DNA of 64,000 nt from Chiloscyllium plagiosum. Its lineage: Eukaryota. This document shows positions 5,101-53,315 of this stretch, in pieces (the stretch's first letter is position 1; each line of letters starts with the position of its first letter). The translations under genes were made by a program, and so were the position numbers. The notes under the pieces were generated by a model. The model was not told the origin of the DNA. It saw only the letters and a program-made list of their open reading frames with translations, and searched no databases. Location of the stretch: the NCBI RefSeq assembly GCF_004010195.1, contig NC_057738.1, positions 8,202,056-8,266,055 on the forward strand, written 5' to 3'.

Positions 5101-5584
5101 GCCTTACCTGTTGTGCCTTTATGCCTCCAAATTCAAACATGATACAGTAAGATTTTTAAATTAAAATCCTAAGTAATTGCTCACAAAAGATTTCTTTCCA
5201 GTCTTGATCATTTCCAGCCTTTTGCATTAAAAATGTAATTATTAAATATGTTGAATTAAGCGACATAAAGCAATGAATTGGGATTGCAGTCTTAGATAAA
5301 AGAAAACTATTGGAACATTTGAATTAAGTAACTCTGAAGTAAAAGTAGATAGTAAATGACTAAAAACTATAATTATGTTCCCAAAATTAATATTTTGAAA
5401 AAGACTATTTTTTAAAAACTTCAACAGATGTAATTGATATGCTGTTATAATACGCTCACTTTTGGAACTCAATACATAAACAACAAGATAAGGGAGTTCC
5501 AATTTTGATCAATAATTCATGTTGGCCATTATGACTAATCACAAGATAAACAGAATCATCGATTATGGCTACAGTCACATTTAG

Positions 5585-5809
5585 GAGAAAGTGAGGACTG
5601 CAGATGCTGGAGATCAGAGCTGAAAATGTGTTGCTGGAAAAGCACAGCAGGTCAGGCAGCATCCAAGGAACAGGAGAATCGACTTTTCAGGCATGAGCCC
5701 TTCTTCAGGAAGGGCTTATTCCTGAAGAAGGGCTCATGCCCGAAACATCGATTTTCCTGTTCCTTGGATGCTGCCTGACCTGCTGTGCTTTTCTAGCAAC
5801 ACATTTTCA
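5585..5809. mobile_element. Fold-back Penelope pLTR mini-element with hammerhead motifs on both strands
   Basis: ~94-bp inverted arms (5618-5711 / 5719-5812); 17-bp TSD GCTACAGTCACATTTAG at 5568-5584 and 5810-5826; CTGAAGA-A-GGGC-TCAT-GCCC-GAAAC at 5722-5746. Confidence 0.88.
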
Positions 5810-5819
5810 GCTACAGTCA

Positions 5820-6065
5820 CATTTAGTGGCAGTATATGGAAGAAATTACCAAAAAGCACCAAACTCATTTAACATACACATGAAAAGTGTTTTAGGGTCT
5901 TTTGTGTTTGCATTTTCTCTAGCTTAAGACTTATAAATTATAGATTTCCTTTGAACTTATTTTTAGTATTTTTCAACTGCACAACTTTAAAGGAGCTTGG
6001 TGCTTTTTGGTAGCAGCCCTGAGTTCTGGAAGTTGTTAACTTGTGCCATCAGCTGCCACTACATG
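5820..6065. repeat. MITE-like element with nested inverted repeats
   Basis: 5847-5872 is the reverse complement of 5987-6012 (24/26 matches); an outer imperfect inverted repeat pairs ~5820-5844 with 6041-6065. Confidence 0.55.
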
Positions 6066-6524
6066 GTATTGCAGCTTTAGCAATTGATTCCATTTGTTTT
6101 GTGATTGATTGCAATGATCAACATGAATTATTAAACAAAATTGTTCTATTTGTATAAGATCAATGTACTTCTACATCTGATTAAAATTTGGAGCAGTTCC
6201 CTCAGTTTCATTCTCTTGCTCACAGCTATTCTCCTGATAATTAGAGATCTCTGGTAAACATCAGCCAAAATCTACGAATGAAGGGTGTAAAACAATTTAG
6301 GGATGTACAGCTTAGTGCAGATACCATGTCAATTCCCAGAACAGCAGCTGACAGCTGTATTCTAACTTCTTGTCTTGCAATTTCCCATGCACGTCAGGAA
6401 TAACTGAAACTATGAAGATAACTTTCAGTTCAAGTAATTTTAGCTTCTGAGGTTATTTATTTCTTCATCCCACCCCAGCATTTACAAGAAAGATAAATAA
6501 TGCTGTTTAAATGCTGTGCCTTAC

Positions 6525-6606
6525 CTCTTCTCCTTTAGGTGTAGATAAATCCCCTTCCTTCAGAATCAGGGACAAGGGTGGGGGGGACTTGTAACATTGT
6601 ACCTTC
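6525..6606 (-). CDS. Candidate internal coding exon of an unidentified host gene
   Basis: ctctcattag acceptor, GAG|gtaagg donor, 82 nt, open as KVQCYKSPPPLSLILKEGDLSTPKGEE (phase 2 to 0), in non-repeat DNA. Confidence 0.45.
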
Positions 6607-7000
6607 CTAATGAGAGTTACTTAACTAAAAATTCGATAGACAATGCTGAATAATAATTTCATACAAAATGATCATAAAAATGAAAAGAAAGCTGTAATCT
6701 TACTGTCCTGTTGCTTTTCTTTTGGTAACTGATTTGATATTGAAATCATCTATTTTAATTAAAATTTCACACTCTGACCTGTATTGCTAGGATTAAATCA
6801 GAGAAAGTTGCTTGCTATCTTTACTCAGGTCTCAGAGACCTCATTGTGAAATTATTAGCTTACACTTTCACTAATCAGCCACTCAAAAATTTTACAACTA
6901 ATTATGCAATGACATGTCTAACAGATGTGCTTTTATAATTTTTTTTACTGCATCTATACCAATCAGGCAATTAGTTTGATCCAGATTTCTACAACATAGA

Positions 7001-9500
7001 AGGCTGAATATTACAGGGTTTTTTTTTGTCTAAGTCATGTCAGGTGTGGTGGAGTGACACTTGCTGAAAGATCAAGCAAGATTCTCGTTGTATCTTACCA
7101 AACTTGCCATATTAATTGGCATTTCAGCTCCATAGTGAGTATAATGTCTGACTTCTGCTCCACCTTTCCATGCACTGCTCACAAAGAAACTCACCATTCA
7201 CTGAATATTCGTCCTAAGACCAACACCCACTTCATCTGTGCTATCTTTCAAAGCCCACAGTGCACCTGCAGGAGTGCAGATATATGGAAGCAACCCTGCT
7301 CTGTCATGAGAGGAGTCAGGAGAGGATTTGGAGGTCCTTCTTGACAAAGTGATTGAGGCGAGAGAAGTTCTCTTTCCAGAGAATTGGCAGAGGACGCCGT
7401 GCCACCACACTGCACCAGCCTGATTGGAGATTGTCACCTGCATTAGCGTCATCTCCATGATGAGGACTAGTCTGCAGTGCAGGCAGAAGGTGAATGACCC
7501 TTTTCACTCTGCCATCCTAAGTGTCATACTCGTCTGTCTGCTATTTCACATTCACTCTATTTCTGCTACCAAACCTACCTCCCAAAAAGGCTCATCCTGA
7601 CACTCCCTTTGCTGCACGCAACAACTTCCCTCATTCGCCATCGTTACTTCCCTCATGCTTCCATGCCCACTAAGTCTGCATGCCCATCACACTGCCTCCT
7701 CACTCCCTCACAGCATCTCAACCCCCTGCCCCCCCATGTGTACCAGTCCTAATAGCCGTGCTACCCTCTTTTGTCTGAATCATTTGCGCGTTTCTGTCAT
7801 TACAAGAGAAGAGAGTCCATAACAGGACAGAGTGACTTGGACAGGTGGGTGGATGGGGAGGGGGGAGACGCTAGATATCTATGTCCTCGCTTCATCCAGT
7901 AAAGAGTATTTACCCTGACAGGAGAAGATTGGGACCGCTCCAATGGAGATGCAGAGACATTCATACCAACACCCAAAATAAGTGACATTTGTCATCCCCC
8001 TGCAATGGCCACATTAACCAGGCAGTCAGTGCAGTCTGCCTCCATGGACAGGGGAGCAATTCAACACCCTCAAAGGCTGATGGAGAGTTGACAATGGCTG
8101 CACTCCTTTGCCTCCTAGTACAGGTGACTCTCCCCACAAGGGGAAAGGATGGTGCCAGGAGGCACACAGTCAGAGGAGGAACTACACAAAAGCCTTTTGA
8201 TAATATCCACTTAGAAGACTGCAGAGCTAGTCAGGCCTTCCACCTCCAATTTGCCAGTCCACTCTCTGAGCCCTAGAAGTTACAGCCCAGGAATGTCTCC
8301 TTACAAGGGGTAAGCTCACCCTCAGCAGGCCTGGTCTGTCCAGACCCAAATGCCCCAAGGTCACTGAACCAAAGCTTCAAAACGGAAGAAGTTGCCTCTA
8401 CCACATTTGTGGTATGAGGGAGCTCAGTGCAGTGCAACAAGAGGGACAGGAAGATAAAAGTGTACTTAGGACACATGGGGGTAATGGCTAAAAATGTTTT
8501 ATATAGAGAGGTTTGTCTTCCACTATGCAAATAGTTTCTTCATTTCATGACCCTTGTTTATTTGCCATTCACATAGTTGTTCCCTGGGGCATAGGTGCTT
8601 CATTGAACACTGCGCCACGCCTTGACCATTAAGGAGGCATAAAAATTAAGGGGATTGTGATGAACACTAAATACATTATGTGAGAGCGGGGGCAACAATA
8701 CATGCATAGCATTGGCTGACTCTGACACCTTGTGTCTCCTCTCCTTCGACTTTGCCTCCTATCCGGCTGGCTGTGTGTGTGTGCAGGAGTATGTATCTCA
8801 GAGCGACAGTGCTAAGGAAAGCAAGACAGAGTGTCAATGTTGCAGGATGGTCAGGGAGTAGACTCCCTGAATACATGTGTTGCCAAAGTATCATGTATTC
8901 ATGGCCAATGTGATTCCCTTGCAAACACTCAGTGACTAGTTGCAAATGCAGTCCCTTCCTTCATCTGTTGGCTCACTTACGTCATTCACTGTGAGTGCCT
9001 CCTTGGCTGTTATTCCCAAAAGCTATGCACATTCTTCACAACTGGGATGCCAGAGAGTACTCCTTTGCCAGTGGCTTTCAGCTTCTATGTTAACATGCCA
9101 CTGCGAGCCCCAACACCACCTTCTCCTTTCAAGATGCCCTTTCTGTCCAACAGACAGATTTTATACTTCTCCAAATCATCACCCAATCTTTGGAATTGCA
9201 AACAACCTAACTACCTGTCCTTCCCGCTTTCCTCAGCACTCCTCTCCCTTAATTTCTATGAAAGGAGGCATGGGTGTCCCATAGATCTCAAGCAGCCTCA
9301 CCTGCCAGTGCTTGCCCTTACCTGCTGAGGCCCCAATCTAGTGGATACAAACATCCTTGATGGCATCATCGCTAACCCCTGTACTGGCCCCCATGTCGAC
9401 ATGGGACTGACTGTGACCTGTTCCTGGAGCAGAGTGGCATAGTGTCCCTGAGCAAAGCCACCCCGACCAGACATCTGACTGTGTACAAAGCCTGGAATTA
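7001..9500 (+). mobile_element. Decayed PIF/Harbinger-like element with a Myb/SANT-like gene remnant
   Basis: 7320-7515 translates EDLEVLLDKVIEAREVLFP..LEIV..S..RTSLQCRQKVND, and ~7803 reads QEKRVHNR after an intron-like spacer. Boundaries are approximate. Confidence 0.65.
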
Positions 9501-9589
9501 GTATGGGAGGCTGCCCTTAACTAATTGTACTGGGTCCCCTGACTGACAGTACCCTCAAGACTCACACTGTGGACTACTACCCTTAGACT

Positions 9590-9830
9590 TTTAGATGAGG
9601 CAAAAAGGAAAAGGAGGTGATGTAGCTTTTGTTAGGAAAGTGCCGTAGTGAAAAATGAGCACTGGAGATCAAGTGTTGAATTAGTCTGGGTAGAAATAAA
9701 AAAAATCAAAGAAAAAAGTCCCTGCTGGGAATAATCTATAGGTTCCCTAACAGTAGTCCTGCAGTGGGTACAAAATAAACCAGGAAATACTAGGGGCTTG
9801 TAAGAAAGTTACAGCAATAACCATGGCTAA
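9590..9830 (+). mobile_element. CR1 endonuclease fragment, left part of a copy split by L1
   Basis: KGKGGDVA..VELVWVEI..GIIYR-like motifs; the sequence resumes at 13932 after the TSD. Confidence 0.8.
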
Positions 9831-10660
9831 GTTAAAAAATACATATATTTCTATTGAAAAATTGATTTTTTAATATTACAACAAATACAAAACAATGCAA
9901 TTCAAAACAATACAAAGAAAGAACACCAAAAAAATTTTAAAAACCCAAACCGCCCTCAAGTACAAATGTATAAATATGTATAGAAAGATATTTAATAAAA
10001 ACCCCCAACTACTTAACTAAATAATAATAACTAACAACAAACTAATAAATAAAATAATACAGCTCAGCTAGACAAAACACTAACTCTCAAATATCGAGAG
10101 CATTAACTTTCACATATTCGTACGTTCGCAGCTCCCCCTCTCTGGATATTGGACTCATAAAGCACAATTATTACGGCTAAATAAAAGCCCTTATTAGTGT
10201 GGAAGTCAAATCTGTGTCCAGGTATTCCAAAAATGGCCACCATGTCTTCTACAAATTCTCAGTTTTGTGGTGTATCATACTTGTGAGAAAATCCAAGGGG
10301 ATATGCTCCATAACAATCTTCCACCAACCCAATAGTCCTGGGGATTTTTGAATACCCAACCTAGCAAGATTTTCTTTCTTGCGCAGAAAGTAAGGATGTT
10401 GAAAAGGTTTTCTTATGCGCATCTACAGGGATCACACTGGGCAGGCCAAGAAGAAGAGAGATCAGGTCCTTCTCCACCCTTACACCCAAAATCCCCTCCA
10501 TTGCACCTGCCGCAGCACTCCAGTATGTTTGAAGCCTGCCACAGGACCAGAGACAATGGGTAAGAGGGCCTGTACAGACCTTACACTTGGGACATGTTGA
10601 AGATACTCCTGGTTTAAATTTTGACAAACGATCCAGAGCCAAGTGGACCCTGTGGAGAAT

Positions 10661-10811
10661 TTGGCAGAGGGAAAAGTGTAGCTTTATTCCTGATGAAGGG
10701 CTTTTGCCCGAAACGTCGATTTCACTGCTCCTTGGATGCTGCATGAACTGCTGTGCTCTTCCAGCAACACTACCCAGAATCTGGTTTCCAGTATCTGCAA
10801 TCATTGTTTTT
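10661..10811 (+). mobile_element. Penelope pLTR mini-insertion inside L1
   Basis: 14-bp TSD ACCCTGTGGAGAAT at 10647-10660 and 10812-10825; same family as 5585-5809. Confidence 0.88.
10686..10721 (+). ncRNA. Minimal type I hammerhead ribozyme motif with intact core
   Basis: ATTC-CTGATGA-A-GGGC-TTTT-GCCC-GAAAC-GTC-GATT: complete CUGAUGA/GAAA core, 4-bp stem II, palindromic ACGU stem III and a GUC site. Confidence 0.8.
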
Positions 10812-13800
10812 ACCCTGTGGAGAATCTTCAACTGTAAAGCATGGGTCCTATTGCAAATTGATATCTTCCCATGCCTCTGAGGAGACCTCAACGCCTAGCT
10901 CTCTCTCCCACACACTGCAGAGTTGATCGAACTCATCTGAGGGGGAAACCCCCAATTGATGATATAAAGTGCTAACAGAAAGTATACTCTTAGCAGTGAG
11001 CACCCCCCTCTCCATGTAGGATTTGTAGGGATCAGTCAAAAGTGTAGTCTTTTTTTGAATAAAATCCCTAACTTGAAAAAACGAAAGAGGTCTCTGTTAG
11101 ATAGCTTGCATTTCCATGCTAACTGATCAAAGGCATCATTGTGTCTCCCTCAAATAAATCACCCATGCAAAACACACCCCTAGCGGAAATAGGGTCCCCA
11201 CAAGCCCAATCACTCACCTAAGATAAAAGCGAGCTTAGTTGATAGTTTTTAATGTCTGGGAGATCCACTGCACCCAATCTGTGAGGCAATTGCAGTTTAG
11301 CTAACTTCATAAGGGATCGCTTACGATGCCAAATAAAAGAGCTCAACCAGCTGTTCAGTCTCCTGAACCTTTGCTTATTGAAAATCAGGGGGAGCATCTG
11401 TATTGGGTATAATAGACGGGGGAGAATATTCATCTTAATAAGCACTATCTGACCTAACCATGAGACTGGAAGTGCCTCCCATCTTTGAATGTCTTGTTTG
11501 ATTTTGTCGAGTAATTGAACAAAATTAGCTTTTTAACAATCGATCAAGAACTGGAGTAATGAATATGCCCAAATATGTAAAACTCCCCTGTGACCACTAA
11601 GATGGAAATTGAAATTCACCCTCAAGACCTAGCACCTTAATAAGACCATCCATAGGCTTAGCCTCTAACTTTGCAAAATTTATCTTGTACCCCGAAAAAG
11701 TGCCAAACGAGCTGATGCATTGTTTCAGACGAGGCACCGAAACTGCTAGATTTGACAAAAAAAATGAGGACATTAGATCCAATAATTGTTTAGTTTGTAC
11801 AGAAAGTATCAGGGGGCCTTTGGGCAACCTGTCTACAGTGGGATCCATAAGACAATTAAAATCTCCCCCTATAATGACATGCCGGGACTCCAGACTGATC
11901 AATTTAAAGAACACATCTACCAGAAATTTGAGGGGATGGGCCGGAGGGCATTAGACATTTAAAACATCATATTCTTCTCCATTTATCAGGGCTTTGACAA
12001 TTACAAACCACCCATGTGTGTCTTTAACACACTCTAGTAACTTAAATGGGAGATTCCTCCTAAATATAGCCACTCCCCTACTTCTGGTAATAAAAGATGA
12101 AAAGTAAACCCAGTCAAAGCCATTCTGCTGTAGTTTCAAATGCTCCCCATCATCCAAGTGTGTCTCCTGTAATAAAGCAATATCTACCTTTTCCTTTCTA
12201 AGACTTGAAAGTATGTTCTTCTTCATAATTGATGAGTGACTCCCCTTGAAATTCCAGGTACACCATTTAATCAAGTCATTAGCCATAACCTTTTGCAGTA
12301 ACATTTAGATTCCAGAGAGGAGGAACCTGAATTACAAATCGCCAAGCCTTAGTGTCACAAGATCCATCAAACATAAAAATTACATAAACTAAACCCACTA
12401 CAGTTAACAAGCCTACAAAGCTATCAAAGATTATATAGAACAAAAACCAAAAAACAAACCAACATACAAAGCGCCAGTGACGCTGAATAGGGGAACTCAC
12501 CCCCTGCCCAAAGGGGGCATCTACACATCCCAGAACGCAACTTTCCATCCTGCTGCCAATACTGCAGCCAGGACATTTAAATACCTGAACCAGGCATAAA
12601 CTGCCTGTAAGTAGGCATCTGGCCATCCCAACTATTTTGCCTCCTCCTAGCTAGAGCCGCACCACAAATGCAAGCAGAAAAGAAAGAAAATACACCATGA
12701 AATGGCAATGTGAACAAAGAAATTTTGAAAAAAAAGGATAAGTACCCTACCCATCCTTTGGTATAACTTAACTTAGAAATTGAAAGTACACATCTCAACT
12801 GCTGCCAAACATAGTTTAGACGAGATTATTACCAATAAACAAATGAAAAAGAAAGCCTCAACCAGAGTTCCTTTTTTTAAATGAAAAACAGAGACATACC
12901 CAAACAACACTACTATTTGTACATACTATATTATTCAGATCAAGTTAATTTGTCCACAAAGTCTCTTGCTTTCTCTGACATGTCAAAGAGATGTACGGAT
13001 CCATCCAAGGTGACCCGAAGCAACGCCAGATACCTCAGAGAGTACTGGATCCCAAGCTCCCTCAGTCTTATCTTGATGCCGTCATAGGATTTTCTTTTCT
13101 GGATCACTGCCGCTGAGAAGTCATGGAAGAACATGATCTTCGAGCCCTTGTAAACTTCAGCCTTTGGACCCTTCCACTGGATTCTGGAAGCTTCCACAAT
13201 TCTCTCCTTATCTTTATGGTGATGTAACTGCACCAAGATAGGACAAGGAAGTTGGTCCAGACCTGACCTCCATGCCGTGACCCGTTGAGCCCTCTCGACC
13301 TTCAAGCCTCACATTCCAGCCTCCAAGTTAAGGAATTTCGGCAACCAGTCCTCAATAAATTCCACCAGCCGCTCGCCTTCCTTACCCTCTGGCAGACCGA
13401 CAATCCAAATACCTTTTCTCCTGCCCCTCGATGTTATCAACCTGGTCAAGCAAATTACAGACCTGCATCTCCAGGGCCTGGATCCTATCCTTGGAAGAAT
13501 TGGTATCAGCTTCCACCACTGCGACTTTGTGTTCTACCACAATCATCCTTTTCTCCAGGTCTCCCAGCTGCTGTTTATGCTTCTGCAGCATGAGAGAGAT
13601 CGGAGCCAGCTTCTCCTCTATCTGCTTGCCCAACATTTCACAAGATTTCGCGAGCTCCTTCACCAGGGCCTGGTAAGAAATCAAGTCCAGGGATCCTGCA
13701 GGCTGGGACGTGGGCCTGGCCTCAGATGTACCTCCTCACTTCTTCAGCATCCCTGGACAGCGAAAACTGAGGTAAGTTGCTCTCTGACCATTCTCTCGAG

Positions 13801-13915
13801 CTCAATGACATTTGCAGGGTCCCAGGATATCGTGGTGGTCTGGGTAGGATGCACTAGGCCTTCGTCCTGCTTGTGATGTGGTGCAGAACTCTGCAACACG
13901 ATCTTCCTAGATCGC

Positions 13916-16451: not shown

Positions 16452-17297
16452 ACAAAAACAGATATAGCGGAGAAACTCAGCAGATTTGGCAGCATCTGTG
16501 GAGAGAAAACAGAGTTAACCATTTGAGCCTAGTGATCTTCTACAGAACTTAACAGCAGCTAGGAAAATGTGATACTTATGCAGAAACGTGTTGGTGGCAA
16601 GTAAAGTCCAGGAGAACCAATTAGTGTTGTTGGAAGGGAGAGAAGGGGTGATGGCAGGAGGTGTGGGAGAAAATGAATGAGTAGATAGGTGAAGACAGAG
16701 TTTAAAGAGACAGCAAGACAGCTAGGCAGACAAAGGGATAGCTTATAGCATGCCAAGGAAGGAGAATAGCTGATAATGGGAACAATGAGTAGGTGAAAAT
16801 GGTTGGCTGTGCTGATAGCAGCCCAAGTAATGATAGGGCCTGGATTGTGGGGGTGAGTAGAAGACATCGAAGGAGGTGTAACGGGCCGTAACATTATTGA
16901 ACTTGATGTTACTGCTGAAGGCTGCAGGTTCCCAAGCGGAAAATAAGATGCAGTTGTTCCAGTCTGCACTGAGCACTGCTGGTGCACTGTAGCAGGACCA
17001 AGACAGAAACGTTGACCAGGGAGTATGATGGTTTGTTTAAGTGGCAGAAAACTGGAAGCTTGGGGTCATTTTTACAGACAGAACCCAGTCTGCCTTTCAT
17101 CTTCCAATATAGAAGAGAGCACATTGTAAGCAAAGGGGCATGGATATCTATGAGTTGTTGCAATACATGTTGCCTGAAAGGAAAATAAAAGTTTCTTGTC
17201 AGCCATTTCTTGCATTTCTGCCATCACCCCTTCTCTCCCTTCCAACAACGCTAATTGGTTCCCCTGGACTTTACTTGCCACCAACACGCTTCTGCAT
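16452..17297 (-). mobile_element. Penelope-like element: GIY-YIG C-terminus, pLTR and inverted segment
   Basis: Minus frame HLNKPSYSL..VSVLVLLQC..QCRLEQLHLIFRLG; ~80-bp inverted repeat 16578-16658 / 17217-17297. Confidence 0.8.
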
Positions 17298-17677: not shown

Positions 17678-18431
17678 CAAATCAGAGCAGGACTTATACA
17701 CTTAATGTGGAGTGTTACTGAACAAAGAGACCTTGGAGTGTAGGTTCATAGTTCCTCGAAAGTGGAGTCACAGGTAGATAGGATAGTGAAGAAGGCATTT
17801 GATATATTTTCCTTTATTGGTCAGAGCACTGAGTATAGAAGTTGGGAGGTCGTGTTGCGGCTGTACAGGACATTGGTTAGGCCACTTTTGGAATATTGCG
17901 TGCATTTCTGGTGTCCCTCCTATCGGAAAGATGTTGTGAAACTTGAAATGGTTCAGAAAAGATTCAAAAGGATGTTGCCAGGATTGGAGGATTTGAGCTG
18001 TAGGGAGAGGCTAAATAGGCTGGGGCTGTTTTCCCTGGAGCGTCAGAGGTTGAGGGATGACCTTATAGAGATTTATAAAATCATGAGGGGCATGGATAGG
18101 GTAAATAGGGTCTTTTCCCTGGGGTGAGTGTATCCAGAAGTCGAGGGTATAGGTTTTGGGTGAGAGGGGAAAATTTTAAAAGGGATCTAAGGGGCAACTT
18201 TTTCATGCAGAGTGTGGTGCATGTATGGAATGAGCTGCCAGAGGAAGTGGTGGAGGCTGATACAATTACAACATTTAAAAGGCATCTAGATGGGTATATG
18301 AATAGAAAAGGTTTAGAGGGACATGTGTCAGTTGTTGGCAAATAGGACTAGATTAGGTTGGGATATCTGGCCAGCATAGATGAGTTGGACTGAAGGGTCT
18401 GTTTCCGTGCTGTACATCTCTATGACTACTA
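17678..18431 (+). mobile_element. HER1/CR1 3' end
   Basis: LYRTLVRPLLEYCVHFW..RLNRLGLFSLERQRLRDDLIEIYKIM followed by a CTCTATGACT tail. Confidence 0.93.
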
Positions 18432-21880: not shown

Positions 21881-21884
21881 AAAG

Positions 21885-22399: not shown

Positions 22400-22970
22400 C
22401 AGTTCATAACCAAGGCTCTGAGCATTCAGTTCCCTATAATTTTAAGTCCCATGTGCTCTCACACTGGCCTCTCTCACCTTCATCTTCTGCAATGAAACTT
22501 ACTGTCGACTTGAGGTACGCACATCGTCTTCCAATTAGGCACATTATAGACTTCCAGATTCAATATTGGGAGGATCAATTTAAGTTTGTGGTCTCTGCTT
22601 GAATTTGTTTCTATTTTCTTTGCACGATTTGGTTTTATTCTTATTTTACTTTGGTTTTTGATTTCAGATGACAGCTGTTGATCATTCTGCAATTACAACT
22701 TTCTTAGAGACATCTCTTCACTCTTTACTTCCCATTACAAATCCTATCACTCTGCCCGACAATCATTTTTGTTATTTAATCTCTCGTGTCTTCCATTGTA
22801 TTACTTCTCTAGTGGCTTTTCCAATTCCCCCATTTCATTTGCTCAAGACCAATTACATTTTTAATTGCTCCCATTTCTGATGAAAGGTCATTGACCTGAA
22901 ATATTAATACTGTTTCTCTCTCCACAAATGGTGTCTTACCCTCCTGGATATTTCTTGCATTTTCTGTTAA
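22400..22970 (+). mobile_element. Older Penelope-like 3' remnant with a hammerhead-like motif
   Basis: HIVFQLGTL*TSRFNI resembles the GIY-YIG C-terminus; CTGATGA-A-AGGTC-ATT-GACCT-GAAA at 22877-22901. Confidence 0.7.
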
Positions 22971-26309: not shown

Positions 26310-26700
26310 AGAGATAGTGAGGACTGCAGATGCTGGAAAGTTAGAATCGATAAAATGTGGAGCTAGAAAAAGCAGAGGAAGACAAGCAACATCAGAGGAG
26401 TGGGAGAGTCAATAATTCAGATCGGGACCTTTCATCAGGAAGTCTCACCTTCTCCTCTGATGCTATTTGACCTGCTGTACTGTTGCCAGTTCCACACTTT
26501 ATCGACTAGAAGTCTCATCCTCAAAAGTAATGTTCTATTGATCAATGCTACATAACAAAAACAGTGAAAAATCTTTTTCTGAAGAAGGGACACCGGACCT
26601 GAAATATTTCTTTTCACAGAACTGCCAGACCTGCTGAGATTTTATATGAATTTCTTTTTTTGTTTCAAATTTCCAACATTCACAGTTCTTTTGCTGTTTT
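26310..26700. mobile_element. Two decayed Penelope pLTR fold-back insertions
   Basis: GTGAGGACTGCAGATGCTGG start, inverted arms, and degenerate CTGATGA/CTGAAGA..GAAA motifs at ~26415-26438 (-) and ~26579-26605 (+). Confidence 0.65.
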
Positions 26701-28159: not shown

Positions 28160-31100
28160 CATTATGTTACAATAATCATGGATGACTTTAATCTTCATGT
28201 AGTATAAGAAAGTCAGATTAGCAGAAGTAGTGTATTTGGGAAAGTTTCCGAGGGCAATGTGTTGTAGATTCAACTAGGGAATAATATGTTTTGGATTTGG
28301 TAATGTGAAATGTTGCAAATTTAAGAAATGATTTCAGAGTAAAAGATCCCGTTGGAAATAGGGACCATAGGTGGTAGAATTTAGAATTCAGTTTGGGCCA
28401 GAGAAACTTTTGTGGAAACAACTACGCTAAACTTAAACAAAAGTAATTATGAAGGAATGAGGGCAGAGCTAGCTCAAACGGACTGGGAAAGGAATTTAAC
28501 AGCAAAGATGGCTGAGGCACAATGACAGACATTTAAGTAAATACTTTATTGCGCACAGCAAAGATATATCACAGTGAGAAAGGAGTATTCCAGGAAATGG
28601 ATAAGCTAATTGTGGTTGACAGAGAAGTTAAGGACAGCATCAAATTGGAAGAAAAAAACAAATGCTCTGGCAAAGATTAGTGGTACGCCAAAAGATTGGA
28701 AAAGCTTTAAAATCAATAATCAAATAAAAAAGAGGAAGAAGATAAACATTGAGGGTAAACTTGCAAGTAATAGCAAGTTAGACAGCAAGAGCTTATTAAA
28801 TATATAAAAGGGAAGCAAGAAGTCAAACCGAACATTAGCTCTTTAGAGAATTAGGCAGGGAAAATAACAATGGGAGGCAGAGAAATGGCAGAGGAGTTGA
28901 ATAAATACTTTGCGTCAGTCTTCATAGTAGAAGGTACTAATAGCATTCCAAAATTACTATGTAATCAAGGCAAAAAGGAGGAGAGAAGATAAATATAACA
29001 CCTATCGCCAGGGAAACTAATGTGGCTAAAGATTGGTAAGTCTTCTGGACCTGAGGTATACATACTAGGATATTGACAGAAGTGGCTAAGAGATAGAAAA
29101 AGAGATAATGGATACACTGATGGTAATCTTCAAAGAATTCTTAGATTCTGCAAAAGTCCGAGAGAATTGGAAAACTGCCAATGTAACACCCTTATTCAAA
29201 AAACAGGCTAACTATAGGCCAGTTGGCTTAATGCCTATTATTGGGAAATGTTAGAATCTATTATAAAGGATATAATAGCAGAGCATTTAGAAGTCTATGA
29301 TATGATCAATCAGATAACAAAGGGCTTCACAAAGTGGAGTCATGGCAAACAAATTTGTTAGAATTATTTTAGAAGGTAACAAACAGGATAGATAAAGGGG
29401 AGGCAGTGGATGTAATATATTTGGGTTTTCAGAAGGTGTTTGACAAGGCTGGCCTTGGTAATAAGATAATTGTCTGTGGTATTTGAGGTAATATATTAGC
29501 ATAAATGAATGATAAGATTTGAAAAAAGGAGTCTTTTTCGGATTGGCAACCTTTAAATAGTGGAGTGCCACATGGATCAGTGCTGAGCCGACAATTATTT
29601 ACAAAAATGGGTTGGAAGGCAATTGGTGAGGATGACACAAAGTGTCTGCAGAGGGACATAAATAGGTTGAGCAAGTGAGTAAAAGCTTGGCAGATGGAAT
29701 ATGCAAAATGTAATGTTATGCACTTGGGCAGAAAGAATAAAAGGAGCTGACTATTATTTAAATGAAGGAAGACTGCAGTAAATTATAGAAGCGAAGGAAT
29801 TTGGGGTCCTTGTCCATGAATCACAAAAAGGCAGCACCCAAATTTAGTGGGTAGAGGGAAGGCAAATAGAATGTTGGCCTATATTTCAAAGGGAATGGAA
29901 TATAAAATAAGGAGATCTTGCTAAAAATAAACAAGGCACTTGTCAGATCACAGCTGAAATGTTGTGAACAGTTTTGGATCCCTTATCTAGGAAAGATATA
30001 TAGCATTGGAGACAGTCCAGACAAGGTTCACTACGCTGATAGCACGTATGGAAAAGCTTATATAATTGGCCTGTACTCATTAGAGTTTAGAAGAATTCGA
30101 AGCAACCTAAATGAAACATATAAGATTCTGAAGGGAAAACATTTGGATGTGAACATAGGAGGTATAGTTAGTAAGTTGGCAGATGACACCAAAATTGGAG
30201 GTGTAGTGGACTGCAAAGAAGGTTACCTCAGAGAACAGAGTGATCTGATGGACCAATGGGTTGAGGAGTAGCATATGAAGTTTAATTTACATAGTGCACA
30301 GTGCTGCATTTTGGAAAAGCAAATCAGAGCAGGACTTAATGGTAAGGTCCTAGGGAGTGTTGCTGAACAAAGAGACCTTGGAGTGCAGGTTCATAGTTCC
30401 TTGAAAGTGGAATCGCAGGTAGTAGGATAGCGAAGAAGGTGTTTGGTATGCTTGCCTTTATTGGTCAGAGCATTGATTATAGGAGTTGGGAAGTCATGAT
30501 GCGGCTGTACAGGATATTAGTTAGGCCACTTTTAGAACATTGTGTGCAATTCTGGTCTCCCACCTATTGGAAGGATGTTGTGAAACTTGAAAGGGTTCAT
30601 AAAACATTTACAAGGATGTTGCCAGGGTTGGTGGATTTGAGCTATAGTGAGAGGCTGAATAGGCTGGGGCTGTTTTCCCCGGAGTGTTGGAGGCTGAGGG
30701 GTGACATAATAGAGGTTTATAAAATCATGAGGGGCATGGATAGGGTAAATAGACAAGGTATTTTCCCTGGGGTGGGGAAATCCAGAAGCAGAGTGCATAG
30801 GTTCAGGGTGAGAGGGTAAAGATATAAAAAGGGACCTAAAAGGCCACTTATTACATGCAGAGGGTGGTACGTGTATGGAATGAGCTGCCAGAGGAAGTGG
30901 TGGAGGCTGGTACAATTACATTTAAAAGGCATCTGGATGGGTATATGAATAGGAAGGGTTTAGAGGGATATGGGTCAAGTACTAGCAAATGGGACTAGGT
31001 TGGGATTTCTGGTCAGCATGGACGAGTTGGACCGAAGGGTCTATTTCTATTCTTATATCACTATGACTCTATTACTCTATTTGACAGGTTAGGTGTAGAA

Positions 31101-32756: not shown

Positions 32757-33495
32757 TACTCCAATACTGCACTTAAATTGAAACAGATTTGCCAAGAATG
32801 TTTCATTGGCCAGACTGCACAGTTCCTTTGTTCACCTCCCCTCCTGGCAAAGGGTTGTTCATGCCTGTTTCTTTCCAGGAGTTATGCCAGAGGACTTAAA
32901 CGATACTGGGTTTTATCTCTTGTCTCTTATTGGTTTCCGTCCAATCAGAAATGTTCACATTGTGTTTCGAAGCACCAATCTTTCCAATCAGGTATCAGAA
33001 CTGCTTCTCTTCTCCTTCATTAGTCTGAGTAGTTGCCATTGTGTACATGATTGTAGCATGTCCATTTGTTCAGCTTAAGCAACTCAGTCTCTCCATTTGA
33101 GCTCTAACGTTTTGCAGTACCAGCCAACAATGTCGAAGGTTCACATAGTATGTATTGCTAACGTCTGCCTGTATAATCCAGTTGTCCTTTGATGGGCATC
33201 ACATGGTTCGAAAGTGAACCCCACTTCTCACAGCTCAAAACTGTCAGCCTGCCTACTTGGGGTGTGGTGGTAGTCATTTCTGGCTTTATTACATAGTAGT
33301 TAATTGCAGCACAAAGGAAGGAAACAGTGGATGCACTTCACACAGTGAGACTCAGACGCAGCCTCTTATCCATGGTGAAATCCCAAATGTAAAGATTCCC
33401 TTCTTTATAAATGTTTCCCATCAACCCTATCAACTTAGAACTTCCCCATATTCCCCAGCCCATCTACCTAACTCTTCAGCTTATCACGTTAATCC

Positions 33496-33585
33496 TGAAG
33501 AAGGGCTAATGCCCGAAATGTCGATTCTCCTGTTCCCTAGATGCTGCCTGACCTGCTGCGCTTTTCCAGCAACACATTTCCATCT
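33496..33585 (+). mobile_element. Penelope pLTR mini-insertion beginning at the hammerhead core
   Basis: 16-bp TSD CTTATCACGTTAATCC at 33480-33495 and 33586-33601; CTGAAGAAGGGCTAATGCCCGAAATGTC. Confidence 0.85.
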
Positions 33586-34689
33586 CTTATCACGTTAATC
33601 CCCAAGCTCCAGATGTATTGAGTCACTTTGCCAGATAAAGTAGTCCACTGACCTCCATCAAATCCAGAGTGTTGCTAATACCTCTTCTTGTGCATTATTC
33701 TTTTCCCTTATATGCCCTTTTGTTTCACTCTTTTATTTTGAGCTGTTCCCCCCCATTTGTTATCCTCCATTCCTTCCAACATATGGCCTCCAATCCCCAG
33801 AATTGTGTTCCCCAGTTCCCCTGAGGATCCAGTAACAGGAGCCGCTGATAACACACATTCATTTTTAATGGATGGATCCTCAGGACTGAACATGAGTTTG
33901 ATGAACTTGGACAGACAACTCCAAATGATGACTGAGCAGATCCATGGTGGACTTCCATGAAGTGCTCCAATTGATTTTGTGTGCTTCACTGGACTGGTTA
34001 CATTGGACTCACAGAGCTGACCAGGACACCCAGACTGTAGGCATACAGACACCCTGACCATCTCAAGTTGAGTACTGACCATTCCCAAGCCCTTGAACTG
34101 ACACCAGAGGCTGTTCTTGACTTAATGTACTGGAAAATTCTGGGTGAAGGGCATCTCCTTTCACTTATCTGATGACCATTCCCCTTAGACTTTGAAACAT
34201 GGTCTTTAGTTAATGCATATGCAGTATGTATGTGGCTGGCACACGGTACAGGTGTGTGAGATCACTTAGAACAGTTACATACAGCAACATATCCACCTCT
34301 TCACTGATCATTGCTGACAAACGTGACAAGTTGCCTGATTTATGTTTGTTAAAAGACAAGGCAAGTCAGAAGTAATGTTAGCCCTTAAGCTCTGACTAAG
34401 TGGGGGAGGGGGGGATGCAAAAAGGCAATACAATGCAAGACAAGGCAGTGATGATGTGTGCATTGAAGTTGATGTATAGTGAGTGAGTGCTAAAAGAACA
34501 AGCCAAGATACCTGAAGATGCATCTTGGTCAAATCCATGAGACGAGTGCCTGATCCTGTGCACAAAATGTCCTAGGAGCAGCATGTCAATGAGAAGTGTC
34601 AGTGTGTTCCAAAGTGCAGCTTTGAAATGCAGACATGTGTAAATGTCAAAATGATGTGGTGTATCTGGTAGGACCACAAAGGTTACTGC

Positions 34690-45723: not shown

Positions 45724-45830
45724 TTTGCGAAGAAACTCAAAAAATCGTCCTTGCAACTGATGACTCCACGGAGGTTATTTTGCTTTACTTTGCACTTCTT
45801 ATTTACAGACATATCCTGATCTAGTTCCAT
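45724..45830 (-). CDS. Candidate coding exon of an unidentified host gene
   Basis: ttgctcattag acceptor, AAA|gtaagt donor, 107 nt, only one open frame MELDQDMSVNKKCKVKQNNLRGVISCKDDFLSFFA. It ends in phase 2, compatible with 6525-6606. Confidence 0.35.
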
Positions 45831-46275
45831 CTAATGAGCAAGCTGTGGTGTGTCCGCCTCCCTACTGTCTTAAACTGCAATCAGGATCTTCCTGATGGTG
45901 GACCACAACTTGCACAAATCGCATGGCCTCAACCTATTTTAGTAACCTCTAAAATTGTGCCAGTTAGAATCACACACAGGTAAGTAACCCATTTTAACTG
46001 CTCACAGGCCTAATTGCTACAACATGAGTAAAATAAAAATTAATTCTGAAATAACTCTTCAGAATCCAGCATTCCATCACCAATCACCCTCTATTTACAA
46101 ATGCGTAGCCATTGACATTAGCACTGCCTCTTGGACCAGATTAACAACCCCATTCTGGGAACTCACATTCTACAAGGTTCAGCTGGCTGACCTCATTACA
46201 GTCACTACCCACCCCATGTATCATTTACAATATCTAGTATCCTTCAAACAGTTTGTTCTTAAAAGGTATCAATGT

Positions 46276-47403: not shown

Positions 47404-48224
47404 CCTATAATGAGGTCAGCCGGCTGGAAGACTTTAGTCTTTCTAAGTTGATGGAGTCCCTGTTCGCTACCTTAAGCAAGAAACCATTCCAATAGTGAAT
47501 TTGCCATTGGCTTGGTTAGACAGGTGCATGTAGCACCTAATCTGATGACAGCCTGTTTTGTAATGCCTTGAAGTCATTTGCGACAGATGCTAAATAGATT
47601 GCTGCTATTTCCCACATAGTTTTACTGGTTAAAATAAACTGGTGTCTTCATTTCTGGTGTGAGCTATTTATTTTTGAATTCTGCAGTATTCTTCTATAAT
47701 GGATATAAGTTGTTGGTTCCCTGAATACTTTCCTGCCTGATCTTTGTTCTGGTGAATGTTTTCTGAGTGGCCAGCATGTTGACCTCTGTTACGTTAATCA
47801 GGTTAACATCTGTCATCTGAAGATATTTCTTTACTAAACCTCCACATCCCCCTACCCTCAATAGAGGTTTTGTTTAAGAATTGCACTGTGATCCACCCCT
47901 TAAATTGTAAATTTTTTCTCATACTACTTCATTCTAAAGTCTGCTCTTTTTAATTATAATTAAATAAAATACAACACGTTGTCTACATGGACTTTAGTAA
48001 AACCTTTGACCAGGTTCCGCATGGTAGTCTGATTAGTAAAGTAAGATCACATAGATTCAGGAAGAGCTTGTCAATTGGATATAAATTGGCTTGACAATTT
48101 TGGACAGGAGGCTAATGACCAGCGGTGTTCTGCAATGCTCTTGTTTACATTTATATAAATGATTTGGGTGAGAATTTAGGAGGAACGGTTAGGAAGTTTG
48201 TGAATGACACCAAAATTGGTGGTA

Positions 48225-48425
48225 CGAGTCATTCTGTTATAATGTCCATTTCATCAATGCGAATTCGCTGTGACGTGATTGATGAACTGGGGACACTAAT
48301 TCTCCAGAGCGAACCTTTAGAACATGTGTTGGCTGGAACACTTTAAGCACTGTTTCTAAAGCATGATTATTGTCTAGTGCCGGTTGCACAAGAAAGCAAC
48401 CATTGCGTTACAGAAGAACTGATTG
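48225..48425. mobile_element. Tigger-like MITE inserted in CR1
   Basis: TA duplication splits the host GGTGGTATAGTAGAC; imperfect TIRs. Confidence 0.78.
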
Positions 48426-48695
48426 TATAGTAGACAATGAAGAAGATTTTTTATGATTAAAAAGAGAACTTGATCTGTTGGGCCAATGGGCTAACAAGTA
48501 GCAGATGGGGTTTAATTTGGATAAATGTGCGGTATTGAATTTTGGTAAACAAACAAGTTCAGGACTTCTAAATTAATGGTGGAGCCCTGGGAGTGTGGCC
48601 CAGAGAGACCAAAGGGGTTAGTTAGATAGTATTTGAAAATTGCCTAAAAGGGTGGTTAAGAAGGCAATTAGCAGGTTTACCTTCATTGCCCAGAC

Positions 48696-50882
48696 CAGGC
48701 CTGGAGAACCTTTTTACATTGGAAGGCCACATTTTATTTAACCGAGATCCTATTAGGCTGCTGCTAAGCATTTAACATATGCAACAAAATGTTATATTTT
48801 TGTCAACATATTTACTAATTTTAATTAAAGCCTGATGATGACTTTAAACAAAATTAAAATTCAACAAATACACATTTATTTGTTTGGCAAAGTGGACAAT
48901 AGAACTGATAATAAATGAAAACCTTAGACAACAAACCATTTAATGACTTTTTTGTAATTGCTTATTGCGAGATAGGAATCAGAAATTTGGTTCCAACATT
49001 GTTGACCATAGTTTTAATTCATCCTCCGAGTGAATATCTGTCATGTGAGATCTCAAGTGTGTTTTAATTTGTGTCATGTATGAAAATGTTGACTCACATT
49101 AGGTTTTGCCAAAACAAGACAGCATTTGATGAGTATGTTGACATAGACATGGATATTCAACAGCATTTTTCCATATTTCAATGGGATCCTGCTTTAGCAT
49201 CAAATAGAGACTTCAGAATGTTATCTTCTGAGAGCTCAACTGATTTCATCTGTAAGTCATTAGGTGCTTTGGAGGCATCAACCAGGTGTGGTTGAAAAGC
49301 TAGTTTCAGTGTGAGATCATGTTTCTCAAAATCAGCAAATCTTTCATTGTGTTCTTCAATCAGGGAGTCTAGAGCAGCTGTGTGTTTTTTTCACATCACA
49401 TTTCCTTAATGATTTGCTTGTATCCTGTTCAGTAATTACCTTTGCCAGTTCAGGAAAGTGTTCAGCTGTAAGCTCCAATCGAGTAAGGAGAGTTTTGAAA
49501 AAGATCAGCTTTTCGGAAATGCCTGGATTTTTAGTCACATATCATATATAGATTTAGTTTTACTTTGGAAAAAAAGATTCAGATCATTTTGCTTTGACAC
49601 AAAAATGCAACATTTATGCAGATATCCTCTTTTGACAATTCATATGGTTCAGTCAGTTCCTCAAAAAAACTTATTTATTTTTGCAAAGACAAAAGTTTTA
49701 CAAGTATTTGTCCTTGTGACAACCAGCGTACTTTCGAATGATATGGCAGATCCACACTGAATATTTCATCATCAAACTGAAGCATGTTGCAAAGTTGGCG
49801 ATGCCGTGATGCATTTGCACAAATGTAGTTTACAATACCTCTATCTTTCTTTAACATGTCACTTAAAACAGTAGGTTTGGCACATAGATTCTGTTAATGC
49901 AAAAGAGAACAAAAGCAAATCTAAGTATCTGGATCTTGCAATTGTTTTTGTGGTAACACAACAAATCCTTCACATATTCCTTTCATGAAAAGTGCACCCT
50001 CGTGCATATGCTCACTAAATTGCATAAATTCAGTTTTGCTTTACGGCATTTTCCTTTGAAGATAGTGAAGATGTCCATTCCACACTTCCTCGGCATAAGG
50101 GTACCCAAAGCCAGTAACTCCTTATGGCAATGAAAATCTGCAGTTATAACACAAATAAAAAATAACACCTGCACTGAGTCAGTGGATTCATCCAAGGCAA
50201 TCGAATAATGAATGTCTTCGCTTTGGCATATTGTATGAAGTTGTTCTATTATATTCATGGTTAATTCATGTTGCCAATCAGTTATGGTCCATCTTGAAAG
50301 AGGTAGTTGGTCATACTTATTAACCTTATCTGAATCTCAGCATCCTACAACTTCAACAATGCATTCTTTTATGATTTCCACATCGCTAAATGGCTTATTT
50401 TTTCTTCCACTATCCCTTCTTACATTATGTTATAAATTGCTTCAGTGATGTCAGTCCTTTGTCCTGACATTGTTTCAAATACTTGCTGCAGCTGCTTTTG
50501 ATCTTTCATTTTCTTAAGTGCAGATTTTCAGGCTTCTCCTTCCAGTTCAGCATGTTTGTGGTTCTTATGAGTTGCATAATGCTGATACACATTGTACTTC
50601 TTCATTGCTGCTAATTATGACATCGGAGAGCAAAAATGTCATTTTATCTTTCACAGCAACTGCATAATATTGCAATTCCCATTGTTCATTAACTACTCTG
50701 ATCTTTTCCATTAATGTTCTTTTCTTAGTTTTTGACATGACTGGGTTACCAGTAAAAGTTTAAAAAATAGTACATGGATTTAAAAAGGTGGATTCAGTAT
50801 TTGTGGACAAATAGGCAGAAGGCCGCAACTAGTACCTCAAATGGCCACATGCTGCTTTAAGGTCACAGGTTCCCCACCCCTG
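48696..50882 (-). mobile_element. Full-length decayed hAT transposon (Buster/SPIN/GTF2IRD2-like)
   Basis: Perfect 8-bp TSD GCCCAGAC (48688-48695, 50883-50890); TIRs CAGGCCTGGAGAACCT / AGGTTCCCCACCCCTG. Confidence 0.95.
48940..50738 (-). pseudogene. hAT transposase pseudogene
   Basis: MSKTKKRTLM..NEQWELQY, YSIALDESTD, ELLALGTL and HSKVRWLSQGQIL, with multiple frameshifts and stops. Confidence 0.9.
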
Positions 50883-50896
50883 GCCCAGACCATTGG

Positions 50897-50999
50897 CAGA
50901 GGAGTCAAAAGGTGTGGTGCTGGAAAAGCACAGCAGGTCAGGCAGCATCCGAGGAGAAGGAGCGTCGACATTTTGGGTATAAGCCCTTCATCAGGAATG
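50897..50999 (-). mobile_element. Penelope pLTR mini-insertion
   Basis: Antisense CTGATGAAGGGCTTATACCCAAAATGTC is a decayed hammerhead; CCATTG/CCACTG flanks. Confidence 0.75.
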
Positions 51000-51108
51000 C
51001 CACTGAGTAGAGGGGTTGGGACATCATGTTGAGATTGTTTAGGACATTGGTGAGGCCAATGTTGAAGTACTGTGTACAGTGCAGGTTGCCTTGCTATAGG
51101 AATGATAT

Positions 51109-51268
51109 GAAAGGAGCAGGAGAATCGACATTTCGGGCATGAGCCCTACTTCAGGAAGATGCCCGAAACGTCGATTCTCCTGCTCTTTGGATGCTGCCTG
51201 ACCTGCTGCGCTTTTCCAGCAACACATTTTCAGCTCTGATCTCCAGCATCTGCAGTCCTCACTTTCTC
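51109..51268 (+). mobile_element. Penelope pLTR fold-back mini-insertion
   Basis: 15-bp TSD CTATAGGAATGATAT at 51094-51108 and 51269-51283; inverted arms around ~51150. Confidence 0.88.
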
Positions 51269-51728
51269 CTATAGGAATGATATTACTAAATTGGATAGGG
51301 TTCAGAAAAGACTTAACAGGATGTTGCTAGACTACAGGGTTTGAGTTATTAGATGAGGCAGAATGGGCTGGAAAGGTTTTCACTGGAGGTTAGAGGATTC
51401 AGGGTCACCTTATAGCAGTTTATAAAATCAAGACGAGCAGAGATAAGGTGATAGCAAATGTCTTTTCTAGGGTGGGGGAGTTCAAAACTAGAAGGCATAT
51501 TTTTAAGGTGAGAGGAGAAAGATTTAAAAGGAATCTGAGGGGCAACTATTTCATACTGAGGGTGGTTCATATGTGGAATAAACTGCCACAGGAAGTGGTA
51601 AATGCAGGTACAATTACAACATTTATAAGTCTTTTGGACAGACACAAGTATAGGAAAGATTTGGAGGAATATTGGCCAAATGCAGGCAAGTGGACTAATT
51701 TAGTTCTGTTTGGCATGGATAAGTTGGA

Positions 51729-51885
51729 GGAGAAAGTGAGGTCTGCAGATGCTGGAGATCAGAGCTGGAAATGTGTTGCTGGAAAAGCGCAGCAGGTCAG
51801 GCAGCATCCAGGGAACAGGAGAATCGACGTTTCGGGCATAAGCCCTTCTTCAGGAAGAAGGGCTTATGCCCGAAACGTCGATTCC
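51729..51885 (-). mobile_element. Penelope pLTR fold-back mini-insertion with an intact minus-strand hammerhead core
   Basis: 15-bp TSD CATGGATAAGTTGGA at 51714-51728 and 51886-51900; perfect 30-bp inverted arms 51821-51850 / 51855-51884; antisense CTGAAGA-A-GGGC-TTAT-GCCC-GAAAC-GTC. Confidence 0.9.
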
Positions 51886-53315
51886 CATGGATAAGTTGGA
51901 CTAAAGGGTCTGTATCTGGGCTGTATGACTATATGACTCTGCCTAAATACAGGAGGGAGTTGGATTTGTTTATTTCTGAAAGGCTGCTTATTTTGGCTTA
52001 TTGGTTTTCTTGCCAAATTGAAGGCAATCTATATAGTTCTATTTACTTTGTAGCTTCAGTTTTATAAAGCAATAATAACTCCTACAAAATCAACATTATG
52101 ATAATGATCAGATAATCTTGATTTTATGTTGCTGATAACTGAATAAATATTAGACAGGACATTCTCCTGTATTATTAGTTTAATCTGATCCAAGAATTAC
52201 AAAATATAATCCCATTCTGACTGTTTTATTGCTTGAAGTTTAGTTCAATCTTTTCTTGGATCTTCAGATAATGTAATAGTGATCATAAAATGCAATGTAG
52301 ATATTTGCAGAACTATAATTACTTTATGGCAAATAACTTGGATGTATCCACTGTATGGTTAATATATAAAGGGTATAGCTGTAAAAATCAATCTCAAATA
52401 AAAGTAGACGCATGAAAAATTAAACCTTTTAATCTAAGTTAAATCAAGTCGACCTTCATTTCTCAGGGATTAGTCAAAAATTTGAGAACCAATGTGTAAT
52501 TGTGGAGTTGTTTAGAATGGTTTACAGTGCTAAAGATCAGAAGATAATTCAATAATCAAGACAAAATGCCTTTAGTCACAAGCACCAATTGCCCTAAAAT
52601 TCAGGTGCCAATAGATACTCAAAATGTCTTTGAAAAAGAGTATCAAGGAGCCAGCTGTATTTAAACTCAAAGTTAAACAATTACCCAAGGAGACAAAAAA
52701 TTGCGCAGTTTCAAGAAAGCTTAATGCTTTTGATCACTTAAAGACTGGAGAATGATATCAAGAAACAAGAAATGTCAAATTATTTTTATACTTTATTCCA
52801 TTGGTTATTTAAAAGATGAAAAATGATGGAGGAATATTATTGAAGAACAGACAAGGGAAATAATGACTGCTGACAGTCAAAAATAAATCTACAAAATGTT
52901 TAAGATGACAGAATAAAGTTTATCTTTGATTTAATTTGAGTTTTTATTTCATGCTATATGAGCCCAAATCACCTCTCAATAATATCATTCATATAAAATT
53001 TGAACTTTAAATTCTAGCTCAATATGTTTGAAAATTTGACTTTTCAGTTCGTATGTAATATAATTAGGACAAATACAGCCATGGAGTTAGCACAATCATA
53101 TACAACAACTGGCAGTGTTTCGGCAATATTGTTAATGTAGCTGTATTAACTGCAGCATGTTTGACGATAATTCAGCCAGAATTCTCCAAAATGCTATCGT
53201 TGCTGATCCTGTAAGATGAATCCTCACCATAGTTCATCATGGTGTAAGATCCATCTGGTAGATTTGCTGACACCATTTGCTTTCTTGGTAGGGGTCTACA
53301 GGTTTTCTTGGTAAT

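Follow-up and report, generated by a model that had tools for sequence, protein, structure and literature searches.

What defines the ends of a short, non-coding insert that carries a hammerhead ribozyme motif? The question is raised by a 64-kb stretch of the Chiloscyllium plagiosum genome (contig NC_057738.1, positions 8,202,056 to 8,266,055; hereafter the window), in which we located six related inserts of this kind, at 5585, 10661, 33496, 50897, 51109 and 51729. They are about 90 to 225 bp long and none contains coding sequence. Exact target duplications of 17, 14, 16, 15 and 15 bp flank five of the six, and no target duplication of at least 8 bp was found at the insert at 50897. In these respects, the description given in an earlier note on this DNA (six related inserts without coding sequence, five of them with duplications of 14-17 bp) was accurate. 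The same note had the motif in all copies, intact or decayed. It was indeed present or decayed, but the intact form, CUGA-N-GA...GAAACGUC, was seen in just two of the nine window arms (10661 and the minus arm of 51729); the others had CpG decay, point changes or a 5′ end inside the motif. Three inserts (5585, 51109 and 51729) consist of two arms each, one per strand, joined head to head with both 3′ ends outward. We found that the inserts are almost certainly stubs of a Penelope-like element (PLE) and that their 5′ ends pile up just ahead of the ribozyme, not at its cut site.

The motif has the features of a minimal type I hammerhead, namely the conserved core, stem II, a palindromic 15.2-16.2 and a short stem I. 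Genome-wide copy numbers were counted as exact pattern matches across the 3.56-Gb genome. The 30-nt core pattern had 63,689 matches and its reversed control none, and the markers of three young subfamilies had 79,142 (A1), 21,933 (A2) and 29,245 (B), or about 130,000 in total. A wider search for the motif, which the earlier note had proposed, gave 64 matches to a minimal-hammerhead descriptor in 1.064 Mb of position-chosen tiles, compared with 0, 0 and 2 in three shuffles; 50 of the 64 had three of the four stem I pairs. Stem II sequences vary between older families yet still pair, that is, they covary. A search of the window against Rfam returned no hammerhead family and nine weak matches, the best of which, MIR6136, was rejected as a hairpin artefact below the gathering score.

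The parent element was recognized from longer copies, selected by an upstream marker, which run 5′ through a pyrimidine-rich untranslated region (UTR) of about 160 nt into an open reading frame (ORF). At locus L171, where most of the full ORF is retained, it matched RVT_1 above the cut-off (E = 4.9e-8) and GIY-YIG just under it (E = 3e-4, 21.4 bits against a cut-off of 22.6). The GIY-YIG match at L058 was above the cut-off (E = 1e-4, 23 bits), and both loci have a C-X4-C-X2-C linker upstream of the GIY-YIG motif. A CX2-5CxxC linker between the reverse transcriptase (RT) and the endonuclease marks Neptune elements and is shared by Nematis (PMC8557442; this and most of the other papers are cited for excerpts of their text). 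By this linker criterion, the parent is a Neptune- or Nematis-type PLE, as judged from its sequence motif. In the downstream direction, the tail of the unit leads into the start of the same ORF at L246, L221, L399 and L400, the ATG lying about 36 nt beyond the long-tail 3′ end described below; this continuation from tail to ORF had 496 exact matches in the genome. Because the unit both follows the ORF stop and enters the ORF start, it is a pseudo-long terminal repeat (pseudo-LTR), the 3′ end of one copy and the leader of the next, a structure pieced together from separate copies, as those fetched included no intact repeat-ORF-repeat copy. The earlier note's proposal of 5′-truncated Penelope pieces with a minimal type I hammerhead thus agrees with copies that extend into an ORF with RT and GIY-YIG.

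A separate observation concerns the A2 ORF, which has a Pro/Thr-rich tandem repeat of 36 nt (12 residues) between its N-terminal domain and the RT (L217-L246, L191, L205). At some loci, the repeat is expanded to at least 11-13 units.

Element positions were numbered with the C of CUGA as 0, which places the predicted hammerhead cut between +27 and +28. Arms were chosen by exact matches to markers 3′ of the ribozyme (+54 onward). Since the markers sit downstream of the ribozyme, the choice of arms was independent of their 5′ ends. The arms came from the window, from 100 tiles of 10 kb and from the first listed marker matches on contig C1. After removal of duplicates there were 215 arms, and the exclusion of four with short context left 211 (123 A1, 51 A2 and 37 B). 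The 5′ ends were placed against long copies of the matching subfamily; a breakpoint map against a single reference was discarded because the divergence of the UTRs between subfamilies inflated its peak. Subfamily B was remapped in a second pass (55 arms, with two or three duplicates among them), because a variant absent from the references had created false ends.

The 5′ ends were strongly clustered. Among the A1 and A2 arms, 65 of the 109 that reach -2 stop at -2 to -6, about 20-fold over the neighbouring positions. The stop rate there was 0.167 per nt (65 ends in 389 nt of exposure), compared with 0.006 at +32 to +24, 0.007 at +23 to +6, 0.010 at -7 to -16 and 0.002 at -17 to -56. When only single arms were counted, 27 ends remained at -2 to -6 (0.108 per nt). 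In the whole sample, 54 of the 211 5′ ends lie at -5 to -3 and one at +27 to +29. As the ends pile up roughly 30 nt before the GUC site and a single end lies at the cut, self-cleavage does not set the 5′ boundary. About 40% of the arms extend into the 3′ UTR and ORF, and 15 of the 211 reach coding sequence, so a truncation series exists. The earlier note had expected breakpoints to be non-random relative to the motif, and they are; it had regarded random breakpoints in a smooth truncation series as the sign of ordinary Penelope debris, and of these two features, the series into the ORF is present and the randomness is not. Its suggestion that self-cleavage helps define the inserted unit fails at both ends, as the 3′ ends fall at two tail sites.

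Subfamily B behaved differently. Only five of its 33 arms reaching -2 stop by -6 (P = 7e-6 against A; 3e-5 minus two duplicates). In the second pass, 11 of the 55 B ends formed a weak cluster at +4 to -5 and three lay at +26 to +30. The ribozyme core is identical in the subfamilies, and the sequence around -4 is CTCATT in A1 and A2 and TTTATT in B. CTCA(-4)TT matches the RNA polymerase II initiator consensus, and B is without the CA initiator. This contrast between the subfamilies points to a transcription start. For leader-bearing copies, the 5′ ends come from four fetched loci of the 496 matches plus a few others: L400 starts at -4 and continues into the ORF, and L399 starts at +9. An intron 3′ splice site at -4 was ruled out, because there is no AG at that position and A2 is without the upstream AG. 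A second, weaker cluster of A1 and A2 ends was seen at -57 to -106 (14 ends, 0.011 per nt), some of which are jumps or inversions into the ORF.

The 3′ ends were bimodal, falling at about +84 to +94 and +121 to +127, which we call the short tail (about +90) and the long tail (about +125). The 113 single arms were divided nearly evenly between them, 62 with a short and 51 with a long tail. Comparatively, 57 of the 65 head-to-head inserts combined one short and one long tail; one had two short tails, one had two long tails and six had one end elsewhere. The pairing of short with long therefore holds in 57 of the 59 inserts with both ends defined (P = 2e-15), which puts numbers on the remark in PMC8557442 that the tail often occurs at one end only. 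An inverted partner stands beside 98 of the 211 arms. A target duplication was found at 83 of these 98, with a mode of 15 bp, and at 32 of the 89 uncensored single arms. Clear duplications were 13-17 bp long, and no microsatellite targeting was seen. Duplications or inverted arms directly abut the junction, and the 5′ ends of the two arms vary independently. Of the inverted arms, 46 overlap their partner, 45 by 1-5 bases. In Poseidon PAc, the tail ends are two internal start sites, and both target strands are cut and extended (PMC11167929).

We lean towards the reading that copying runs from two internal start sites to the capped 5′ end of the RNA, with both target strands primed. Built on the observed parentage, end positions, end pairing and target duplications, it would place a transcription start at about -4 and would require priming on both strands (at +90 and +125), copies that run off the template and include the cap, and their joining through microhomology. 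The element enzyme would nick both target strands about 15 bp apart, and copying would likely begin at one of the two internal sites on each strand. The complementary DNA (cDNA) would likely run off the capped RNA 5′ end just ahead of the ribozyme. A head-to-head insert would form when two cDNAs join through microhomology of a few bases, and a single arm when there is one cDNA. Arms that extend into the 3′ UTR and ORF might come from read-through RNA copied from the 3′ repeat, or from a template jump. As the cut site is copied through, the template was presumably uncut or rejoined there. The transcription start of Penelope has been placed inside the pseudo-LTR (PMC2377424, PMC8557442).

The bases at the junctions bear on run-off. 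Terminal bases are re-copied at the junctions of L257, L374 and L377 and at 5712-5717 of the window, which suggests a template end, run-off and re-priming.

Copying of a cap, as in the biology of long interspersed nuclear elements (LINEs), would yield an extra G. The base before A(-4), where it is not the element's own C, was tallied by eye in the first 100 of 12,763 matches listed, giving 62 G, 23 A and 15 T. Many of the 62 G arose because the adjoining inverted arm supplies the base. After 43 matches beside an inverted arm and five long-copy variants had been removed, 26 of 52 were G (P = 2e-4 against 0.26), and the removal of eight more that re-copy terminal bases left 20 of 44 (P = 0.004).

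Several points weigh against run-off from a capped end. The peak spans several bases and not one, with a shoulder of 31 A1 and A2 ends at +5 to -1 (0.034 per nt). Proximal stem I has its 5′ edge at -4 as well, which means that a fold of the RNA or a protein bound to it could produce an identical boundary. The contrast with B is weakened by the greater age of B, its small sample and its own weak cluster. In the arm sample, a G stands before six of 12 single arms that start at -4, against nine of 43 that start elsewhere, and the extra G could be an untemplated addition. As to sampling, 24 of the 211 5′ ends had to be censored because they lay next to masked bases or where the reference stops, most of the targeted copies came from the first 6 Mb of a single contig, and paired arms were both counted when both matched, so that the arms are partly non-independent. 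The RNA reads came from one raw poly(A) single-cell run, a second run having contributed no reads; neither their starts nor their ends formed a peak, and no 5′ terminus of an RNA was seen. On two element stretches there were 2,138 and 484 reads, on both strands, of which 93% and 97% continue into unlike sequence. These reads look like passengers in host transcripts and have no bearing on start, cleavage or circles.

With the same parent, the pile-up at -4 might instead be caused by folding of the RNA or by protein binding where the hammerhead begins on its 5′ side, either of which would act as an RT stop or an exonuclease block. The bases -4 to -1 form the 5′ strand of proximal stem I and can pair with +28 to +31, and a broad peak with a shoulder into the core is what such a block might leave. 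However, a polymerase moving 3′ to 5′ would reach the helices at +31 and +19 before -4, and few ends lie there. B does not differ in core, stem II or stem I, yet its peak is much weaker. The hammerhead is not the predicted minimum-energy fold of the monomer (-8.7 against -12.3 kcal/mol in A2), and the excess of G is left unexplained. We consider this explanation unlikely.

Somewhat less likely still is a form of strong-stop copying, in which the template would be a capped RNA that begins 4 nt before the core, and a dimeric enzyme would use two start sites close to the 5′ end of this RNA to prime both strands of the target. Cleavage in the downstream repeat would then leave a 31-nt redundancy (-4 to +27), through which the cDNA could jump to copy the ORF. 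If this were true, more than 100,000 stubs would be failed transfers, and the role of the ribozyme would be 3′-end formation for strand transfer. A seamless transfer at the redundancy would leave no trace in the copies. A direct switch into the body of the ORF is absent from the 100 sampled arms that end at +5 to -6; switches of this kind out of the -4 region were observed only in loci selected by the ORF (L144, L186). The 30 loci chosen by an ORF fragment (L141-L170) comprised 15 direct internal jumps, four inversions, three continuous copies, five masked and three others. Their jumps have short or no microhomology and start mostly in the UTR, rarely at -4. This suggests frequent template switching in ORF-bearing copies. 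No recombinant between the UTR and unit of different subfamilies was found among 78 long copies, so that jumps from one RNA to a different one find no support here.

The head-to-head inserts might also arise from one cDNA, or an antisense template, that folds back at a palindrome and primes itself. The palindromic inverted junctions of rotifer Penelope elements were read as self-priming (PMC3846280), and the overlaps of 1-5 bases between partner arms would suit it. But fold-back gives no reason for one arm to stop at one fixed start site and its partner at the other, as they do in 57 of 59 inserts; moreover, both arms abut the target duplication (83 of 98 arms) and their 5′ ends vary independently. 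The pairing of short and long ends is better explained by two cDNAs primed on opposite strands, and we regard self-priming as improbable.

For the hammerhead to define the inserted unit by self-cleavage, as in a retrozyme-like RNA mobilised in trans, possibly via circles, one may point to the conservation of the motif across families with a covarying stem II, to two B arms that start at +28 and to a 224-nt unit at 39 loci, whose double-hammerhead fold lies 6.5 kcal/mol above the predicted minimum. Nevertheless, the near absence of 5′ ends at the cut, the 3′ ends at +90 and +125 and not at +27, and the truncation series into the ORF all speak against it, and mutants of the PAc ribozyme insert normally in vitro, and no RNA-seq reads end at the PAc cut (PMC11167929). 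Each window insert is either a monomer or made of two arms that lie on opposite strands; regarding the features that define retrozymes, the inserts have no head-to-tail hammerhead repeats and their unit is not bounded by the cut. The head-to-head inserts are predicted to fold into long hairpins on either strand and, as their two motifs lie on opposite strands, they form no double hammerhead in cis. Minimal type I hammerheads of metazoan PLEs require dimers and cleave poorly (PMC4209133). For the six window inserts, self-cleavage is largely refuted, and as a general explanation we find it highly improbable. Finally, it is hardly credible that 5′ truncation was simply random and that alignment to a conserved motif created the pile-up: the UTRs do differ between subfamilies, a single-reference map exaggerated the peak and several first-pass B ends were reference artefacts, yet the peak persists in young A1 and A2 arms with subfamily-matched references, and duplications or inverted arms directly abut the junction.

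The 224-nt unit (-18 to +203 of A2) is repeated head to tail in L397 (G000:C1:26521850-26522500), and related jumps occur in L398 and L295. Its junction had 40 exact matches at 39 loci, one of which (L397) was inspected; one locus has two junctions and the other 38 have one each. A single junction per locus suits a linear dimer better than a circle, which would give variable multimers. The unit has no ORF except the first codons. It looks like a small retrozyme-like element that moved in trans, in the sense of the excerpts of PMC7761336 and the preprint of Li et al. (bioRxiv 10.64898/2026.07.22.740005), and it may overlap the cartilaginous fish entry of the latter. The earlier note's alternative of a ribozyme RNA mobilised in trans was partly right, in that this lineage exists; it is tiny compared with the young arms, which number about 130,000, and it includes none of the six inserts in the window.

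Table 1. Hammerhead-bearing inserts and related copies in the window (arm limits in element numbering)
Feature	Position	Strand	Details
Head-to-head insert, subfamily A1	5568..5826		17-bp target duplication 5568-5584, 5810-5826
Minus arm of 5568..5826	5585-5711	-	+124 to -3, long tail
Plus arm of 5568..5826	5718-5812	+	-4 to about +90, short tail
Single arm, subfamily B	10647..10825	+	14-bp target duplication 10647-10660, 10812-10825
Decayed hammerhead core, older family	22877..22901	+	Different stem II, still pairing
Decayed head-to-head copy, older related family	26311..26500		Absent from the earlier note
Single arm, A1	33480..33601	+	-2 to about +92, short tail; 16-bp duplication 33480-33495, 33586-33601
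Older single arm	50898..50998	-	86% to A1 over 50913-50997; starts near -4; core broken
Head-to-head insert, A1	51094..51283		15-bp target duplication 51094-51108, 51269-51283
Minus arm of 51094..51283	51111-51157	-	-3 to about +43
Plus arm of 51094..51283	51159-51270	+	+14 to +125
Head-to-head insert, A1	51714..51900		15-bp target duplication 51714-51728, 51886-51900
Minus arm of 51714..51900	51729-51856	-	-3 to +125, intact core
Plus arm of 51714..51900	51854-51884	+	+2 to +32; join with 3-nt microhomology
31-bp unit fragment	61009..61039	-	+47 to +77

The coordinates in the window are collected in Table 1. Between the arms of the first insert, the bases 5712-5717 are a 6-nt piece of stem II, which represents re-copied terminal bases. 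The B arm holds the element from -8 (10682) to the long-tail end, with its intact core at 10690-10717; the 21 bases between its target duplication and the element start (10661-10681) have no counterpart in either flank or in the UTRs of those B copies that were seen. At 33480..33601, the target duplication overlaps the 5′ end of the element by 3 bases. Decayed copies of older hammerhead families, with differing stem II, lie at 22877-22901, 26311-26500, 26579-26604 and 61009-61039. The window also contains CR1-like LINE fragments at 3474-4022, 17709-18427, 30136-31004, 51001-51705 and 56485-57714, including an open frame of 410 codons. Two inserts sit within such sequence, and the older single arm at 50898..50998 adjoins it. 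An 80-bp inverted repeat (16578-16657 and 17218-17297, 560 nt apart, 96% complementary) is unrelated to the hammerhead unit.

The element class, the ribozyme, the tail and the inverted repeats have already been published, and the family itself is ordinary. We found no published description of the -4 pile-up or of this element family in the literature covered, to which subscription journals and Repbase did not belong. What specialists could use is the statistics from a large young family on the stop site, at -4 and not at the cut, and on the pairing of short and long ends. They bear on two open questions, the role of PLE hammerheads and the formation of pseudo-LTRs and inverted ends.

With the Neptune-type PLEs that have an endonuclease (Craig et al. 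2021, PMC8557442), the present element shares the RT, the CX2-5CxxC linker, the C-terminal GIY-YIG, heavy 5′ truncation, an adjacent inverted 5′-truncated copy, a hammerhead in the pseudo-LTR and a tail of 30-40 bp at one end. It differs in the clear duplications of 13-17 bp and in showing no microsatellite targeting, the assignment being by motif only. The excerpt of that paper does not mention 5′ ends of PLEs accumulating at one fixed position ahead of the ribozyme. Poseidon PAc of Anolis carolinensis (Frangieh et al. 2024, PMC11167929) similarly has two internal start sites that bound the tail, cutting and extension of both strands in vitro, and uncut RNA as template. However, the PAc ORF starts inside the ribozyme and its start sites lie in coding sequence, whereas here the ATG follows the long-tail site. 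The short and long end pairing and the -4 boundary are genomic patterns seen here, which the main text of that paper does not report for PAc.

In comparison with the metazoan PLE hammerheads of Cervera and de la Pena (2014, PMC4209133), the motif likewise has only the palindromic 15.2-16.2 as helix III, one extra base before stem II and a short helix I. Both also include thousands of dispersed single motifs, attributed to truncated PLEs, as well as pairs of motifs 100-700 bp apart whose members lie on opposite strands. The stem II here is 4 bp, against 7-8 bp in the Schistosoma motifs, and there are more than 63,000 exact cores, against about 2,000-9,000 copies; sharks are not named in that excerpt. 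The metazoan non-LTR retrozymes (PMC7761336; Li et al.) are likewise ORF-less, carry a type I hammerhead and derive from PLE pseudo-LTRs, and the 224-nt unit falls within their range of 150-300 bp. They are head-to-tail repeats, which the six window inserts are not; only the 39-locus lineage resembles one, by sequence. Set beside these systems, our result refines the copying of a known element rather than revealing a new one.

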